In this document: one piece after another, positions 5,271 to 39,253 of the stretch | Layout: every line of letters begins with the position of its first letter | Position numbering within the stretch: the first letter of the stretch is position 1 | UHGV virus genome: UHGV-0087833 | Reading direction: 5' to 3' (one strand) | DNA length: 39,497 nucleotides | Source: a virus | The notes under the pieces: generated by a model | The model's input: only the letters and a program-made list of their open reading frames with translations | Databases searched by the model: none | What the model was told of the DNA's origin: nothing | Program-made: the position numbers and the translations under genes

Positions 5271-5374
5271 GTTAAATCTCCAGATAGTCGCAGCACCCGT
5301 TGCGCCGCATATCTGGTTATTCTATTACCTGAAAAACCACATATGGATAGAAAGACTGTAAATACGAATAGATA

Positions 5375-5426: not shown

Positions 5427-5446
5427 TACTGTATAAATATACAGTT
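5427..5446. promoter_or_regulatory. LexA (SOS) box TACTGTATAAATATACAGTT
   Basis: CTGT-N8-ACAG with AT-rich centre, about 20 bp upstream of the first antirepressor-like gene. Confidence 0.8.
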
Positions 5447-5769: not shown

Positions 5770-5855
5770 ATTTACATCGCACTCCTCTTGTGCCATAGTA
5801 ATCGGGCACTGGCAAAATCCAGTGCCGGGATTGGCGTCCCGGGTTACTACAGAGG

Positions 5856-5887
5856 CACATATGCCGCATAAGCGGTTTTTTTATGTG
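5856..5887 (+). terminator. Hairpin plus T7 run inside the ant leader (intrinsic terminator/attenuator candidate)
   Basis: CACATA...CCGC-ataa-GCGG-TTTTTTT-ATGTG; upstream hairpins at about 5803-5826 and 5827-5844. Confidence 0.45.
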
Positions 5888-6035
5888 TAAAGCGCACCTA
5901 TTCTATGGTGGGCTGTGTGGGGGCACCGAAAGGTGCGCCGGGTCCTTTGTAGCCGGTTACGCCAACCCTGCACAGTTCACCACCAACCGATTGGCGTCGG
6001 TAGTGGTGATTAACCTAACTACAAAGGTGATCACT

Positions 6036-6722
6036 ATGACTGCTAACGTAACCCCATCTGTTTTTCATTTTGAATCAGAAGCCACCATTCGAGCCATTGT
6101 TATTGATGGAAATCCTTGGTTTGTTGCCAAAGACGTTATTAAAGCTCTTCAACTGACAAACCCCACTATGTCAATAAAATCTCTTGATGATGATGAAAGG
6201 GCTAAATTTAACTTAGGCCGTCAAGGTGAAACCAATATTATCAACGAGTCAGGCCTCTACACACTGATCCTCCGCTGCCGCGACGCAGTGACACCAGGCA
6301 CTATCCCCTACCGCTTTCGTAAATGGGTTACAGGTGAGGTTCTTCCTCAGATCCGCCGCACCGGAAGTTACATTAAAAACTCGCTCCCGCAGGAAGAACG
6401 CATAAAGATAGTTGCCGACCAGGTAGCCAACGCCACAGCATCAGCAGTGATGCAGGCAATGAAGATAGAGAACAAAACCTACAGTGCCCCACTGAAGCCC
6501 GGCTACCGCAGCCTGATTCATTCTCCGTCTGGTGTTCTCGGCCTGACGGAGAACTCACTGCTGATGAATCTGCTGAACCAGTTACAGGAAGACGGGCACG
6601 ACGTATCGGGCGCGGCGGCGGAGCTGACCACCATGTTCTGCTACATTGTTGGTGTGAGCAAATGCCTGCGTGATATCCAGACCCACGCGGAGTACATCAA
6701 CGACAAGGCTGGGTTCTTCTGA
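6036..6722 (+). CDS. ant: Antirepressor Ant (Bro-N domain plus Ant C-terminal domain)
   Basis: Bro-N signature (GNPWFVAKDVIKAL...LDDDE...ESGLYTLIL...FRKWVTGEVLPQIRRTGSY); start at internal ATG 6036 with AAAGG RBS. Confidence 0.85.
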   Translation: MTANVTPSVFHFESEATIRAIVIDGNPWFVAKDVIKALQLTNPTMSIKSLDDDERAKFNLGRQGETNIINESGLYTLILRCRDAVTPGTIPYRFRKWVTGEVLPQIRRTGSYIKNSLPQEERIKIVADQVANATASAVMQAMKIENKTYSAPLKPGYRSLIHSPSGVLGLTENSLLMNLLNQLQEDGHDVSGAAAELTTMFCYIVGVSKCLRDIQTHAEYINDKAGFF

Positions 6723-7542: not shown

Positions 7543-7704
7543 ATGAAAAAAGCATTTGCTGCACTGTTCGTTTTGTTGTCTCTGGTAGCTTCAACTCAGG
7601 CCTTTGCCGGTCGTTGTCAGCACGACAGCGACACTGCTGCTGACGGCTCCCGCTGCGGTGGGCGTTCTGCGGATTCCCGCCCGGGTGGCGGTGGCATTCG
7701 TTAA
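7543..7704 (+). CDS. Small secreted peptide (53 aa precursor with signal peptide)
   Basis: MKKAFAALFVLLSLVASTQAFA-GR...: classic n/h/c signal peptide; mature part Gly-rich with 2 Cys. Confidence 0.45.
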   Translation: MKKAFAALFVLLSLVASTQAFAGRCQHDSDTAADGSRCGGRSADSRPGGGGIR

Positions 7705-7726
7705 AAACAAGGCCGCGAAAGCGGCC
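7703..7726 (-). terminator. Rho-independent terminator for the minus-strand lipoprotein transcript
   Basis: GGCCGC-gaaa-GCGGCC hairpin followed on the minus strand by TTGTTTTT. Confidence 0.55.
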
Positions 7727-7727
7727 T

Positions 7728-7739
7728 GTGACATGTCAC
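7728..7739. repeat. Perfect palindrome GTGACATGTCAC (copy 1 of 3)
   Basis: 12-bp perfect palindrome between lipoprotein stop and terminator hairpin. Confidence 0.8.
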
Positions 7740-7742
7740 GAC

Positions 7743-8156
7743 TTATAAAGATGACTGATATTTTACAACTCTGTTCATGGCATCTTTTTTCACCGAGCTG
7801 ATATCAGTTCTTATTTTGGCTTCGTCATTACTGCTTATCATGCTATTAATTTTTTGCACTGACATGCCGTTTCTTTCAGCCATTGCACATACAGCAGCAT
7901 CGTATGAAGAACTCGCTGCGATGGATATCACCTTGTTACACTCAAACACAGCACCTTCAGCAATATCAGATGCCGATGAGGCTGGCTTGGTATAAGTCTT
8001 GACGTAGTGATCAATACAACTATCCTTCGCCGTCTTGGCAAGAGAAAAATCCATTTTAACTTTGTCGCAATATGCCTTATCAACACCGTCATAAACATCA
8101 TAGGATGTCGAGCAAGCGGATATCAAAAATACCGATAACAGCAATAATTCCTTCAT
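7743..8156 (-). CDS. Lipoprotein (low-GC accessory gene)
   Basis: Signal peptide with lipobox LISAC; AAGGA RBS; AT-rich coding sequence. Confidence 0.7.
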   Translation of the reverse strand: MKELLLLSVFLISACSTSYDVYDGVDKAYCDKVKMDFSLAKTAKDSCIDHYVKTYTKPASSASDIAEGAVFECNKVISIAASSSYDAAVCAMAERNGMSVQKINSMISSNDEAKIRTDISSVKKDAMNRVVKYQSSL

Positions 8157-21954: not shown

Positions 21955-22247
21955 TCCTGTTCACTGGCCTCTTTGGCCATCTTCAAATACTGTTCAGGGC
22001 AATGCGCCATAACGCGCTGAAACAGTTCCAGCGCCAGATTGCGTTGCCCCTCATTAAATGCCATTGCCATAGCGTCCATCGGTGAGATAGCGGAAAACAC
22101 ACGGCCTTTCTCCAGCACCGACCAGACAACGCGACGCCCCTGTTCACTGCTCATGACAAAGCGAATGTCATCAATTTCACGCTGTGCCATGTCACGTTGC
22201 TTACGGGCGTTTTCTTCTTTCAGTTGATCATCTTCGTAATCTGTCAT
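21951..22247 (-). CDS. Hypothetical head morphogenesis protein
   Basis: 98 aa, overlaps portal stop and scaffold start. Confidence 0.4.
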   Translation of the reverse strand: MTDYEDDQLKEENARKQRDMAQREIDDIRFVMSSEQGRRVVWSVLEKGRVFSAISPMDAMAMAFNEGQRNLALELFQRVMAHCPEQYLKMAKEASEQE

Positions 22248-24144: not shown

Positions 24145-24234
24145 ATCAATGACTCCGTACGCAATTAAATCATTACCAATTTAACCACATATGATTTATT
24201 TATCGTAGAATGTTGACATTTAACGCGTGAATTA

Positions 24235-24571: not shown

Positions 24572-24648
24572 GTGGCATTAGCTCAGTCGGACAGAGCAAC
24601 CGCCTTCTAAGCGGTTGGTCGCAGGTTCGAATCCTGCATGCCACGCCA
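24572..24648 (+). tRNA. tRNA-Arg (anticodon UCU, reads AGA)
   Basis: 7-bp acceptor stem GTGGCAT/ATGCCAC, T-loop GGTTCGAATCC, anticodon loop CTTCTAA, encoded CCA. Confidence 0.9.
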
Positions 24649-24846
24649 GAATCACGCCTAAGGACCGTGATGCCAGAAGTTCCAGGGGCTTGGCGGTGAT
24701 GGTTTCCCTTGAAGGACTATCACCGCCCTTTTTACAGCAGGACGCCATTGCGATGACTTCATGCTGTAAACCCGTACAGCCACGGAAGGCATAACTCATT
24801 GCTTCCAGTTCGCCCGGTTCGCCGGGCATTTTTTTAAGGTGAGATT

Positions 24847-25218
24847 ATGAACGACAAGCAAATCGAAAAAGAAATCGTTGAGAAAGGCAAAACGGCACCG
24901 CGCGTTACGCCAGACCATATCGAAGGCATTATTGCTCAGGAGGCATATTTCACAGCAGAAGATGGTGCCTTTGGCAAAGCCATAAAAGCGAAACATACTG
25001 GCGGAGAGGTAAACTACCAGCCGCACGAATCACTTTCTCTGCTGACGTTCTGCGTCCTGGTGCTGCGCAACGGCTTCACCGTCACCGGAGAGAGCGCCTG
25101 TGCAAGCCCGGAAAACTTTGATGCAGAAATTGGTCGGAAGATTGCCCGGCAGAATGCTGTAAACAAAATCTGGATGCTCGAAGGTTACTTGCTGAAGCAG
25201 AAGCTAAGCGAGCAATAA
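24847..25218 (+). CDS. Phage protein, Gp49-like
   Basis: 123 aa with AAGGTGAG RBS; family assignment from memory. Confidence 0.5.
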   Translation: MNDKQIEKEIVEKGKTAPRVTPDHIEGIIAQEAYFTAEDGAFGKAIKAKHTGGEVNYQPHESLSLLTFCVLVLRNGFTVTGESACASPENFDAEIGRKIARQNAVNKIWMLEGYLLKQKLSEQ

Positions 25219-25222
25219 CACC

Positions 25223-25234
25223 GTGACATGTCAC
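25223..25234. repeat. Perfect palindrome GTGACATGTCAC (copy 2 of 3)
   Basis: Sits 4 bp after the Gp49-like stop and 4 bp before terminator hairpin. Confidence 0.8.
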
Positions 25235-25238
25235 AAAC

Positions 25239-25265
25239 AGCCAGCCGATGAGCTGGCTTTGTTTT
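25239..25265 (+). terminator. Rho-independent terminator of the tRNA / Gp49-like unit
   Basis: AGCCAGC-cgatga-GCTGGCT followed by TTGTTTT. Confidence 0.7.
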
Positions 25266-27420: not shown

Positions 27421-27446
27421 AAAATAAAGCCGCCATAGTTGGCGGC
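27421..27446 (-). terminator. Rho-independent terminator upstream of terS on the late-operon strand
   Basis: GCCGCCA-acta-TGGCGGC followed on the minus strand by TTTATTTT. Confidence 0.6.
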
Positions 27447-27487: not shown

Positions 27488-27499
27488 GTGACATGTCAC
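27488..27499. repeat. Perfect palindrome GTGACATGTCAC (copy 3 of 3)
   Basis: Overlaps stop codon of the 113-aa gene, about 40 bp before the terminator. Confidence 0.8.
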
Positions 27500-27837
27500 A
27501 CTATTAATTTCGTTTCATGCCAGCCTTTAGTCACCCAGCATTGTGAGTCACCATTACACGGACATGAATTAACTGGAACTCTCTCGCCGCACTTACCGCA
27601 ACGTTTTCTGCTGATCGATTTTATACGCCCGCGCACGCGTGCATCATCCTGGCGGATCAGTAACGCTATATACTCACCAAATTCGTAAGGCGCACGCCCG
27701 GGGCGACGCGTGGCACAGTTACGCTCCAGCATTTCAATTTCCTGAGCATCAAGCACAATTTCCAGCTTACGCACACCAGATGCAGCTTGTCTGGCTCTCT
27801 GAGCGGCTTTGCGCTCTGCTGCTGATTTAGCCATCAA
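27496..27837 (-). CDS. Cys-rich putative regulator in the Q-equivalent position
   Basis: 113 aa; basic N-terminus, C-terminal CGKCGERVPVNSCPCNGDSQCW cluster; last early gene before the late-operon terminator. Confidence 0.4.
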   Translation of the reverse strand: MMAKSAAERKAAQRARQAASGVRKLEIVLDAQEIEMLERNCATRRPGRAPYEFGEYIALLIRQDDARVRGRIKSISRKRCGKCGERVPVNSCPCNGDSQCWVTKGWHETKLIV

Positions 27838-28368: not shown

Positions 28369-29177
28369 TTCGCCTCCTGCGGCGGCTCTGGTAGCGGCAT
28401 CCAGTGAGTTACGTCATCCAAGATATTTCCTGATAAATACGTGAAAGCTCTATATTTTTTGTAATCAATTGGATTTACAACCCAGTTCCAATATGCTGCC
28501 ACGATTTCACCTTGACTAAATGCCAGTAACATTTTGGTGTCTTCCGGCATTAGATCACTACAGCTTATCCAACCATCCGGAGTTACCGGATAGTTGCCAT
28601 TTACATCGAAGTTTGGCTCTGCGTCCTGAACCAGGAGGATGTAACCATTCTTGGCCGTATCAAGTTCTAACGCCTCAGTGACGGTGCCGAAATAGCGATT
28701 ACCTAAATCAGCATCACAAGTGCTTACATCAATGGAAACTTCCATGCCTTCGATTAATTCTGCCAAGTTGTAAGCTTGGCTTACAGGTTCGGCTTCCAGT
28801 TCTGCTATGCGCTTATTTGCTGCTTCCAGCTCAACACGCAGCTTCCCTACCGTTAGCGCAATTTCCTCGTTCTCCTGGTCGCGGCGTTTGATGTATTGCT
28901 GGTTTCTTTCCCGTTCATCCAGAAGCGCCAGCACAGTAGCCGGATTGGCTGCGGCGATGAATTCAGCATTGGCCTGCTGTTCAGTTTGGAAATCTTCATC
29001 GAAACCGCTTTCAGGATGCGCTCCTTCAATTCTGCAAATGGGAATATATCCAGCAACTTCACGATGAATTAGCGCATCATCACCATCAAATCGGCCCTTT
29101 CCATATTCGAGCGACCACTCACCACACGTTGCTTTTTCTGCCTTAGCACGCAGTACCTGATAGTCAATCTTGCTCAT
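28365..29177 (-). CDS. Ead/Ea22-like protein with DUF551-like C-terminus
   Basis: 270 aa; coiled-coil middle; C-terminal ...THWMPLPEPP. Confidence 0.5.
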   Translation of the reverse strand: MSKIDYQVLRAKAEKATCGEWSLEYGKGRFDGDDALIHREVAGYIPICRIEGAHPESGFDEDFQTEQQANAEFIAAANPATVLALLDERERNQQYIKRRDQENEEIALTVGKLRVELEAANKRIAELEAEPVSQAYNLAELIEGMEVSIDVSTCDADLGNRYFGTVTEALELDTAKNGYILLVQDAEPNFDVNGNYPVTPDGWISCSDLMPEDTKMLLAFSQGEIVAAYWNWVVNPIDYKKYRAFTYLSGNILDDVTHWMPLPEPPQEAK

Positions 29178-31061: not shown

Positions 31062-31108
31062 TTAAAAACCACATAAGACACGAAATCAATAGAGTTTAGA
31101 ATATTTTA

Positions 31109-38002: not shown

Positions 38003-39253
38003 TTATTCTCCCGCCATCCACTTCTCAAACTTCGACGGGGAGAACGGAATCAGATCCGTATGCTCCCCGTCAATCCAGGAATCAATCATATCGGCCCACT
38101 GCTGCAACATGTAGGCGCGCTGTCTGGCGTATTCCGCTTTGTTATATACGGCGCGCACACCTTTCTGCTCATGTGCCAGAGCCTTTTCAATCCAGTCTGA
38201 AGGATAACCAGCCTCATGCAACAACGTACTGGCTGTACGGCGCATATCATGTACGGTGAAGTCCTGAATATGCTCACCATCTTCATTTATTATTTTCACC
38301 GTTCTGTCGATCAGAGAGTTCAGCGCGGCATTAGATAATGGCTTCCGGAAATTGTAACGACCAGGAACCAGATATTCACTTCCACCAGCGCACATCTGCA
38401 ACCCAACCAATATATCCTGTGCCTGTTTAGGCAGGTAAATAACGTGCGCCCGGCTTCCCTTCATGCGGTCTGAAGGAATTGTCCATGTCCATTTTTTAAA
38501 ATCTATTTCATCCCACGTTGCATTGGTGAATTCGCCTTTACGAACCATAGTGATAAGCACCAGCTTTAAAGCCATTTTCATAGTGCCCATAGCACCAATG
38601 GCATCCAGCGTGCGGAAGAACAGGCCAATTTCTTCTGGTGTCAGTGTTCGCTCTCGTGGTTTAAATATGGCGATAGACGAAGGTTTAATGTCAGCCGCAG
38701 GATTAAACAAACCATGACCACGGTCATTGGCGTGACGGTATACGCTGCTGATGATCTCCCTGGCCTGTACTGCTGTTGCCCGACCACCGCGTTCGACAAT
38801 CCGGTCACACAAATCACGAACCATCGATGTGGTAATTTCAGCCATCATTTTGTTGCCAAGAACCGGAAGTATGTCACGGTCGATCACCGCCTGCTTCATT
38901 GCGCGGGTACTGTCAGCCAGGATGACGTGTTTCATATAACTGTCGGTATGTACCGCAAACGTCTCGGCACCACGAATCTTTTTGATACCGTCACGTTTAG
39001 CCGCAGCCGGTGACTGGCCTGCTTTAAGCAGCTTCTTTGCAGCAATCAGTTCTTCTCGCGCTTCTGCCAGGCTGATACCGTCACGCCCATACTGCCCGAT
39101 TACCAGTGTTTCGCGGCGACCGTTGATACGGTAGTCATAGCGAAACGAGACCGTGCCTGACGTAAGCACAGCTACATACAGCCCGTCACGATCGGAGACC
39201 TTGTACAGTTTGTCCTGCGGCTTGAGGTTTTTTAATTTTGTATCGGTAAGCAC
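38003..39253 (-). CDS. int: Tyrosine integrase
   Basis: 416 aa; C-terminal catalytic region (HDMRRTASTLLHEAGY...); GTG start with upstream in-frame stop; next to att core. Confidence 0.9.
   Translation of the reverse strand: MLTDTKLKNLKPQDKLYKVSDRDGLYVAVLTSGTVSFRYDYRINGRRETLVIGQYGRDGISLAEAREELIAAKKLLKAGQSPAAAKRDGIKKIRGAETFAVHTDSYMKHVILADSTRAMKQAVIDRDILPVLGNKMMAEITTSMVRDLCDRIVERGGRATAVQAREIISSVYRHANDRGHGLFNPAADIKPSSIAIFKPRERTLTPEEIGLFFRTLDAIGAMGTMKMALKLVLITMVRKGEFTNATWDEIDFKKWTWTIPSDRMKGSRAHVIYLPKQAQDILVGLQMCAGGSEYLVPGRYNFRKPLSNAALNSLIDRTVKIINEDGEHIQDFTVHDMRRTASTLLHEAGYPSDWIEKALAHEQKGVRAVYNKAEYARQRAYMLQQWADMIDSWIDGEHTDLIPFSPSKFEKWMAGE

Follow-up and report, generated by a model that had tools for sequence, protein, structure and literature searches.

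What purpose could be served by a 12-bp perfect palindrome that lies in three exact copies on one phage genome, each time between the end of a gene and a transcription terminator? The question is raised by the virus genome UHGV-0087833, a stretch of 39,497 nucleotides referred to here as the window, in which GTGACATGTCAC occurs at three places only (copies A, B, and C; Table 1). Sequence comparison places the window among the epsilon15/phiV10-like temperate podophages of the genus Uetakevirus, with its late genes on the minus strand and about 81% identity to epsilon15 in the region considered. We know of no description of how phages of this type switch on their late genes. The evidence gathered below indicates that the 12-mer is very likely the operator of an uncharacterised phage regulator, predicted to join a ribbon-helix-helix (RHH) fold to a zinc knuckle, and that site and regulator travel together as a cassette.

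The three copies mark the ends of the early operon, the terminase genes, and the portal-to-tail structural block. At copy C, this last block converges with a plus-strand unit carrying isrK, C4, and an antirepressor. A search of the window with Rfam covariance models at the gathering score returned only tRNA, isrK, and C4, none of them near the palindromes.

Table 1. Positions in the window of the palindrome copies, the adjoining terminators, and the neighbouring genes
Feature	Position	Strand	Remarks
Regulator gene, 112 aa	27496-27834 (ORF 27496-27837)	-	epsilon15 gp49 / phiV10 p55 / N15 gp46 family, PHROG 536; TGA stop at 27496-27498, part of copy A
Palindrome copy A	27488..27499	.	overlaps TGA stop of regulator gene; 41 nt upstream of terminator before small terminase gene
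Terminator A, early operon / small terminase	27421..27446	-	GCCGCC AACTAT GGCGGC TTTATTTTG; hairpin 27446-27429(-), then TTTATTTT; 41 nt beyond copy A
End of early operon (early-right)	27488 (copy A)	-	followed by terminator, then small and large terminase genes
Large terminase gene	stop 25309	-	copy B in its 3' gap
Terminator B, 4 nt after copy B	25239..25265	+	AGCCAGC CGATGA GCTGGCT TTGTTTT; hairpin 25239-25258(+), then TTGTTTT
Palindrome copy B	25223..25234	.	between large terminase gene and convergent cargo gene (stop of 24847-25218(+))
Cargo gene, convergent (N4 gp49 / Sf6 gp66 family)	24847-25218	+	plus-strand cargo unit consists of tRNA-Arg and cargo gene
1-mismatch copy GTGCCATGTCAC	22184..22195	.	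within coding region; sole 1-mismatch copy in window
Last gene of portal-to-tail structural block	7743-8156	-	copy C after its stop
Palindrome copy C	7728..7739	.	after stop of 7743-8156(-); 0-1 nt before structural-block terminator
Terminator C, structural block	7703..7727	-	AGGCCGC TTTC GCGGCCT TGTTTTT; hairpin 7727-7710(-), then TGTTTTT

The sequence-only reading had taken three exact copies as too many for chance, and this stands. Because that reading was free to choose any palindrome, the shuffling test counted every 12-bp perfect palindrome; among 5000 mononucleotide shuffles of the window, two copies arose in 65 and three copies in none. For the degenerate core GTGACNNGTCAC, the window holds 3 matches against 0.05 expected, a number reached in 0 of 100 dinucleotide shuffles. 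The same reading had described a fixed order of gene stop, palindrome, hairpin, and T-run along the transcribed strand, with conservation limited to the 12-mer itself. Both descriptions were borne out, as the order is the same at all three sites and their flanks are unrelated, and epsilon15 holds the same 12-mer within diverged flanks. The 12-mer is a real, non-random, and conserved DNA element that resembles a protein-binding site.

All three adjoining hairpins qualify as intrinsic terminators in a consensus scan, each being G+C-rich and followed by a T-run on the transcribed strand. Local RNA folds at these positions range from -15.5 to -24.5 kcal/mol. An A-rich stretch upstream of terminator B makes it partly bidirectional.

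Close relatives answer the question of whether the 12-mer is absent from, or randomly placed in, related phages, the outcome that would have spoken against its importance. The identical 12-mer lies at the three equivalent junctions of epsilon15 (2142, 19517, and 39612), where the flanks are unrelated to those of the window and the hairpin sequences are different. Copy A corresponds to epsilon15 39612 and is exact in 76 of 80 close IMG/VR relatives. The orthologues of copy B lie at epsilon15 2142, phiV10 2262, and Kp4865-1 15252, and those of copy C at epsilon15 19517, where the palindrome overlaps the gp18 stop, and phiV10 19493. The gene that precedes copy C is not the same in the window, epsilon15, and phiV10, yet the 12-mer is kept. 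In phiV10 two copies are exact (2262 and 19493), and the third is a 1-mismatch form, GTGA/CATGTTAC, split at the slash, where the linear GenBank record begins and ends.

The surroundings of copy B separate the palindrome from its neighbour on the plus strand. Among the 80 IMG/VR relatives, copy B is kept wherever the backbone terminator is present, even where the cargo gene has been replaced by an unrelated one, and where the cargo genes differ, homology between relatives stops exactly at the palindrome. Within the genus, the intergenic region is nearly invariant throughout. When the cargo gene itself appears at 99% identity in other phages, ones that lack the regulator, the sequence after it is quite different and contains no palindrome, which rejects the idea that the palindrome is part of the cargo gene. 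A matched control used 80 phage loci carrying this cargo gene, split by the presence of the regulator family, PHROG 536. With the regulator gene present (38 loci, 683 kb), 71 sites were found against about 0.7 expected; with the gene absent (42 loci, 756 kb), 2 sites were found against about 0.7 expected, and one of those 2 lies in a locus that is cut just before the place where the gene would lie. The palindrome tracks the regulator gene and not the cargo gene, and therefore belongs to the backbone of regulator-bearing phages.

The regulator gene, whose stop codon is part of copy A, encodes a 112-aa protein labelled hypothetical in every source except for its sole PHROG match, PHROG 536, annotated as 'transcriptional regulator'. 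Searches against Pfam, NCBIfam, and the PDB with phmmer and hmmsearch gave no sequence match even at E = 10, and assignment to a curated RHH family at the sequence level was rejected on these grounds. PADLOC likewise returned nothing for the protein. Structure prediction was more informative. An AF2 model built from a deeper alignment was used, as the shallow-alignment model was poor (pLDDT 63.7), and it shows an N-terminal beta-strand followed by two helices, similar to known RHH proteins. Together with four cysteines conserved throughout the family, the protein is predicted to consist of an N-terminal RHH domain and a C-terminal Cys4 zinc knuckle. A short DNA site with two-fold symmetry is just what an oligomer of this predicted kind would be expected to recognise. 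The family comprises about 210 clusters at 50% identity and is spread over podo-, myo-, and siphoviruses, telomere phages, and P2-like phages of Enterobacterales and Vibrio. Neighbouring genes vary among phages and show no PADLOC match, so a conserved downstream partner gene and a link to defence or toxin-antitoxin functions were set aside. A literature search, with the epsilon15 genome paper outside its scope, found no paper with the 12-mer or on the PHROG 536 family.

Gene and motif recur together well beyond the genus. The Pectobacterium myovirus ZF40 has three copies of TGTGACATGTCACA, one of them immediately 3' of the gp22 stop. N15 has three copies of the form GTGAC(TG/CA)GTCAC, of which GTGACTGGTCAC overlaps the gp46 stop, and a set of 49 N15-like and two Vibrio-phage loci contains 110 sites against 0.87 expected. 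The Vibrio siphophage K303, whose homologue is 31% identical, likewise has three copies, GTGAC(GC/AC)GTCAC. A single copy is found in the lambda-like phage Chlobot, where it directly follows the homologue, with the next start codon 11 nt further on; a P2-like Yersinia phage carries one exact copy and, a few tens of bases upstream, the variant GTGACATGGCAC. Prophage loci from 34 species, ranging from Citrobacter to Proteus and Xenorhabdus, contain 49 sites where 0.62 would be expected, and the motif is present in 32 of the 34. Genomes typically carry about three copies, often with one at the stop codon of the gene itself. We infer that the gene and its adjacent site form a cassette that moves among otherwise unrelated temperate phages.

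Conservation at the nucleotide level points to recognition in DNA. In the repA gene of N15-like phages, 22 consecutive nucleotides are invariant, third-codon positions included, while neighbouring third positions vary. The YdaT-family genes at the cII position in Proteus, Providencia, Xenorhabdus, Morganella, and ZF40 contain an invariant 12-mer (codons R/C-D-M-S) within flanks that change. At 19 diverse sites beside the regulator stop, conservation beyond the 12-mer is limited to a T at position -1, and other positions do not exceed about 60% identity. Other clades keep the GTGAC and GTCAC arms and vary the 2-nt centre. Conservation of just two 5-bp arms is the pattern expected of a dimeric DNA binder.

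Association with terminators is real but partial. A palindrome followed by a hairpin and a T-run within about 60 nt appears in 34 of 161 non-redundant contexts, mostly at 0-4 nt; the reverse order, with the hairpin before the palindrome, appears in 17 of 161, and 8 of these 17 involve the same, bidirectional hairpins. The hairpin sequences differ by lineage (Uetakevirus B- and C-type, Xenorhabdus L152, Pantoea L145 and L150, Citrobacter murliniae L148, and others), so the arrangement of palindrome and terminator arose, or was kept, more than once. N15-like phages place a site in the gap between gene 33 and an annotated terminator at 28413-28435, and in one of them (L094) a hairpin follows 33 nt after the site. 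Adjacency is not universal, as a large number of sites fall inside genes or 11-21 nt upstream of a start codon. In other PHROG 536 phages, the motif is found within coding regions (the YdaT-family gene and N15 repA), and in some it directly precedes ribosome-binding sites with no terminator nearby. The earlier proposal of a terminator-associated element thus holds in one part, since the palindrome lies upstream of a terminator at all three sites and does so again in other lineages, and fails in another, since the motif is tied to the PHROG 536 gene and not to terminators as such.

Current evidence supports a reading, to which we give a probability of roughly 0.6, in which each of the three palindromes, placed at transcription-unit junctions, is a cognate operator for the RHH/zinc-knuckle protein that the phage itself encodes. 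A symmetric oligomer would bind the palindrome, with one RHH dimer, or half a dimer, on each GTGAC arm. There would be one site for each boundary in the late direction, that is, from the early operon to the terminase genes, from these to the portal-to-tail block, and from there to the next block. As the last product of the early operon, the regulator would act on RNA polymerase traffic at these unit boundaries. The site may load the protein onto a passing polymerase, or let the protein touch it, and so lead to read-through of the junction terminators. From sequence comparison we infer physical binding, its stoichiometry, and an effect on transcription.

Several observations sit uneasily with this operator reading. 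The gap between palindrome and hairpin is variable, from 0 to 44 nt. Some homologues lack a site beside their own gene, and some prophages carry point-mutated palindromes. The late blocks also have upstream motifs of their own, ATTACC-N5-GGTAAT and TATGTGGTT, which could mark independent late promoters.

Among the possible outcomes of binding, control of terminator read-through is the one we prefer, tentatively, as a functional analogue of lambda Q acting at qut/tR'. The likeness to lambda lies in the gene order: a regulator that is last in the early operon is followed by its site, an intrinsic terminator, and late genes. This order is found in the window, epsilon15, phiV10, and Vibrio K303, where the late genes after the terminator are the small terminase gene here and lysis genes in K303. 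In both systems, the regulator carries a zinc-binding element (a predicted one in the phage protein), and the adjacency of gene and site would favour action in cis. Uetakeviruses and Vibrio K303 thus hold the regulator in the lambda Q position, which, joined with a site at every late-direction junction, favours read-through. So does the promoter scan: a simple search detected no sigma-70-like promoter in the stretch from terminator A to the small terminase gene or 5' of the portal block. Long antisense untranslated cargo regions also lie in the path of late-direction transcription, and crossing such regions normally needs a modified polymerase. Sites that precede or lie within essential late genes would do no harm under read-through, and this again speaks in its favour.

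There are also differences from the lambda system. The phage protein has no homology to the Q family (no Pfam or PHROG Q match), and additional sites occur at other unit ends and within genes. Copy A has one weak promoter-like match, but across relatives no promoter or pause element was seen to be conserved at a fixed distance from the site. The module is also present in phages that already have a Q-like protein. ZF40, N15, and Chlobot are such phages, and for some of the sites in them no terminator lies close by; late antitermination, or a late switch, can therefore not be the one role of the module in all phages. At copy B, the hairpin precedes the palindrome in the late direction, which counts against read-through. 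To our knowledge, nearly all known RHH regulators are repressors, and we know of no RHH protein that acts as an antiterminator, which weighs in the same direction. A bolder version, which we regard as doubtful, would make the PHROG 536 protein a new class of DNA-site-loaded elongation factor unrelated to lambda Q. Polymerase would pick up the protein at GTGAC-N2-GTCAC and cross intrinsic, and probably also Rho-dependent, terminators, providing the early-to-late switch in Uetakeviruses and some Vibrio phages.

The same protein-site pair may instead work as a roadblock or insulator, an unlikely alternative, though the most probable of the rivals. Bound protein would hinder elongating polymerase at unit ends and reinforce one-directional terminators at convergent junctions; with similarly low probability, it would shut off early operons late, as negative feedback, at the intragenic sites. 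The repressor habit of characterised RHH regulators agrees with a roadblock, given a fold assigned by prediction, and so does the location of sites away from promoters. Proteus-, Xenorhabdus-, and ZF40-type prophages have promoter-proximal sites in both early operons and a distal regulator gene, an arrangement that fits delayed shut-off, and the N15 site within repA could limit transcription of the replication gene. A roadblock would, however, be redundant directly upstream of an efficient terminator, as at copies A and C. It would also choke essential late genes where a site lies just before the small terminase gene (Vibrio K303) or within a structural gene (Klebsiella-type Uetakeviruses), and copy B would be harmful in the same manner if a single transcript covers the terminase and portal genes.

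Less likely again is an architectural role of the MatP/matS kind, in which the protein bridges about three sites and folds or marks phage DNA, with a secondary effect on transcription or none. The recurrence of some three sites per genome among unrelated phages, away from promoters and even within coding sequence, would suit such a role, and the known hosts (Enterobacterales, Vibrio, and Aeromonas) belong to taxa that have MatP. MatP is itself an RHH protein that reads an inverted repeat with the same 5-bp arms, it has dispersed sites away from promoters, and it appears among the fold matches of the 112-aa phage protein. E. coli matS, with the 13-bp consensus GTGAC[AG]N[TC]GTCAC, has exactly the same GTGAC and GTCAC arms (PMC3603311); true matS is reported to be avoided by prophages (PMC3603311). 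The phage site differs in being 12 bp long with a 2-nt spacer, against 13 bp and a 3-nt spacer (RNY) in matS, and none of its copies matches the 13-bp definition. Profile comparison found no homology of the phage protein to MatP (hhalign probability 0.3%), and the likeness is confined to the level of the RHH fold. A Cys4 knuckle takes the place of MatP's four-helix bundle and coiled coil, which the phage protein lacks. The binder would, moreover, come from the phage itself, and its sites would number about 3 in 40 kb, one of them at the stop codon of its own gene. An architectural role leaves the placement beside terminators and at the gene's own stop codon unexplained, and Chlobot has only one site. 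As a side possibility, the phage site may have evolved as a matS look-alike, one base shorter, that escapes host MatP.

It is improbable that the palindrome serves as a core promoter element (GTGACA as a -35, or a spacer before a -10) or as a classical promoter operator through which the protein activates or represses initiation. Single phages are suggestive. The scan at copy A gave one weak promoter-like match (-35 GTGACA, an 18-nt spacer, and -10 CATGAT), -10-like hexamers follow the palindrome by 2-5 nt in ZF40 (TATAAA) and in the Pantoea prophage L145 (TATAAT), and Chlobot has an extended -10 just upstream. Across 19 palindrome-anchored sites, however, no -10 or -35 lies at a fixed offset and no flank is conserved, and both GTGACA as a -35 and a -10 at a fixed distance were rejected. 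Copies B and C lie 0-4 nt from a terminator hairpin with no gene start nearby, and many other sites are in coding sequence.

Two readings that detach the motif from the phage protein, or from DNA, fare worst. A site for a host factor such as MatP, or a mere recombination linker at module boundaries with only incidental linkage to the phage gene, could explain why homology ends exactly at the palindrome when the cargo gene differs and why the arms equal those of matS; it is made highly improbable by the 2-nt spacer in place of 3, by the background frequency of sites in the 42 related loci without the gene, and by the presence of the motif alongside the gene in lambda-like, N15-like, P2-like, myovirus, and Vibrio phages, where the neighbours differ. 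The least probable reading is the RNA processing signal offered by the sequence-only reading, or a stability or termination-helper signal in RNA just 5' of terminator hairpins: every copy in the window is transcribed just before a terminator, and RNase III sites are annotated in other intergenic regions of the epsilon15 record, but the 12-mer folds at -1.2 kcal/mol, no better than shuffled sequence and too weak for a hairpin, its 5+5 arms with a variable 2-nt centre cannot make a 5-bp stem with a 2-nt loop, and two-fold DNA symmetry with strict linkage to an RHH gene, like the arms-only conservation elsewhere, points to recognition of double-stranded DNA by a dimeric binder.

The proposed operator system can also be set beside better-known regulators. 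RHH repressors such as P22 Arc, Mnt, CopG, omega, AmrZ, and the toxin-antitoxin antitoxins share with the phage protein the predicted fold and a short symmetric target. Half-site centres in the phage site are 7 bp apart, a spacing similar to that of the omega heptads. The operators of these repressors overlap promoters, usually their own, whereas the phage sites lie at 3' ends, beside terminators, and within genes. Searches around the phage gene turned up no partner toxin and no conserved partner gene. P1 ParB-parS, F SopB-sopC, and the dispersed SopB sites of N15 offer another parallel, with a site just downstream of the binder gene and more copies dispersed. These partition systems differ from the phage module in that no ParA- or ParM-type partner lies beside the phage gene, most PHROG 536 phages integrate into the host chromosome, and each locus has one 12-bp site instead of a repeat array. 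What sets this case apart is the pairing of a predicted RHH protein with a very probable symmetric, matS-like operator that lies at 3' ends, by terminators, and within genes.

The operator reading assigns a testable DNA target to a widespread and uncharacterised family. With the gene at the lambda Q position and sites at every unit junction, protein and site together are the obvious candidate for the late-gene switch in epsilon15/phiV10-type phages, and the pair gives an experimental handle both on late-gene control in these phages and on the orphan family PHROG 536. Action on elongating polymerase would make the protein a second, independent solution to DNA-site-dependent antitermination; if its role is architectural, it would be a phage counterpart of MatP/matS. 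As a compact orthogonal operator, the 12-mer may also be of use in engineering.

Variation in the motif is seen in several places. The natural variants include GTGAAATGTCAC and GTGACATGTTAC. Whether the coding-region copy at 22184 belongs to the system is uncertain; its variant GTGCCATGTCAC also occurs in phiV10 at 5306 and is absent from epsilon15. In an Aeromonas phage with a homologue of about 30% identity, the first 12 kb contain only the degenerate form TGACATGGCAC, at a stop/start junction. Three matches to GTGACNNGTCAC may serve as an annotation marker that predicts a PHROG 536 gene. In the reverse test, 80 IMG/VR chunks were picked by the 14-mer TGTGACATGTCACA alone, and 20 of them contain a gene of the family. 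At least one large cluster among the seemingly negative chunks has the gene too, at a distance of about 8.5 kb that puts it beyond the ends of most of them.

Three copies of the GTGAC-N2-GTCAC palindrome, the proposed binding site of the PHROG 536 regulator, lie beside terminators in the window, as palindromes A, B, and C. Klebsiella-type Uetakeviruses lack copy C and carry an exact GTGACATGTCAC within a structural gene, approximately 9.5 kb downstream of copy B. Copy C is thus replaced by a site elsewhere, so that three sites per genome are maintained while their position is not. The surroundings of palindrome A vary as well. The terminator 3' of this copy is swapped for a promoter-like region in relatives from Klebsiella, Citrobacter, and Kluyvera; the replacement regions in L138, L140, and L147 hold a perfect LexA box (CTGT-N8-ACAG), along with a small additional gene ahead of the small terminase gene. 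The phiV10 palindrome A is a one-mismatch variant. It is not visible in the linear GenBank record (L001, NC_007804.2) because that record was opened mid-palindrome, with …GTGA at positions 39101-39104 and CATGTTAC… at positions 1-8.

Palindrome B borders a cargo hotspot, a slot flanked by the large terminase gene on one side and the portal block on the other. Across different relatives (loci L003-L082 and L294-L373), no fewer than nine convergent genes, unrelated to one another, have their ends within a few bases of this copy. The corresponding gene in the window (24847-25218, plus strand) belongs to the N4 gp49/Sf6 gp66 family, and 99% identical copies occur in phages of other types. The same slot contains a tRNA-Arg gene oriented opposite to the late genes and followed by two plus-strand terminator-like hairpins (24692-24727 and 24812-24827). 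The minus-strand ORF that overlaps this tRNA (24578-24829), annotated as p04 in phiV10, is probably not a gene.

The most distant homologue of the regulator examined, encoded by Aeromonas phage 13AhydR10PP (L374), is about 30% identical. Its gene end reads …AAATGACATGGCAC… (about 2957-2970), where TGA is the stop codon of the homologue and the inner ATG starts the following gene. This stop/start overlap equals the palindrome core, TGACATG, and may hint at how the palindrome originated.

A separate inverted repeat, ATTACC-N5-GGTAAT, occurs 12 times in the window with up to two mismatches allowed, against 1.2 copies expected. The epsilon15 record annotates such sequences as "repressor" sites. 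Copies bracket the immunity region of the window and also precede the portal block and the antirepressor unit, as well as the genes for the small terminase and the tailspike. Because several copies are directly followed by a start codon, the repeats might conceivably also act at the RNA level, as 6-bp hairpins at ribosome-binding sites. An ATTACC-type site also lies upstream of every copy of the 9-mer TATGTGGTT, which is present three times (0.29 expected), each time 25-65 nt ahead of the gene that opens the tailspike, portal, or DUF1064 block of the minus strand. This 9-mer could be a promoter or leader element common to the three blocks.

In the antirepressor unit, isrK and C4 antisense RNA matches lie directly upstream of a Bro-N antirepressor-like gene and overlap its start. 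Together they look like a P1/P7-style c4-ant immunity module within a podophage. The LexA-box-like sequence CTGTATATTTATACAG nearby suggests that the antirepressor may be under SOS control.

Positions of possible regulatory features and RNA features in the window and in related loci
Feature	Genome or locus	Position	Strand	Remark
tRNA-Arg	window	24572-24648	plus	anticodon tct
GTGACATGTCAC	L138; L326; L329	24674; 527; 1066		Klebsiella-type Uetakeviruses
Promoter-like replacement region	L138; L140; L147	12697-12790; 10336-10420; 1108-1190
ATTACC-N5-GGTAAT	window	5374, 5754, 6794, 24234, 27376, 27394, 31046, 31108, 33439, 34151, 34213, 39295		inverted repeat
TATGTGGTT	window	5335-5343, 24183-24191, 31067-31075	minus
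isrK and C4 antisense RNA	window	5806-5882 and 5901-5987	plus	Rfam match
Bro-N antirepressor-like gene	window	5883-6722	plus
CTGTATATTTATACAG, LexA-box-like	window	about 5429-5444		divergent region between tailspike gene and isrK/C4/antirepressor unit
GCGACC..GGTCGC	N15 (L084)	33481, 35932, 41126, 45563

Four copies of another inverted repeat, GCGACC..GGTCGC, are dispersed in N15; this repeat is unrelated to GTGAC-N2-GTCAC. It may match the known partition sites that are scattered across the N15 genome.
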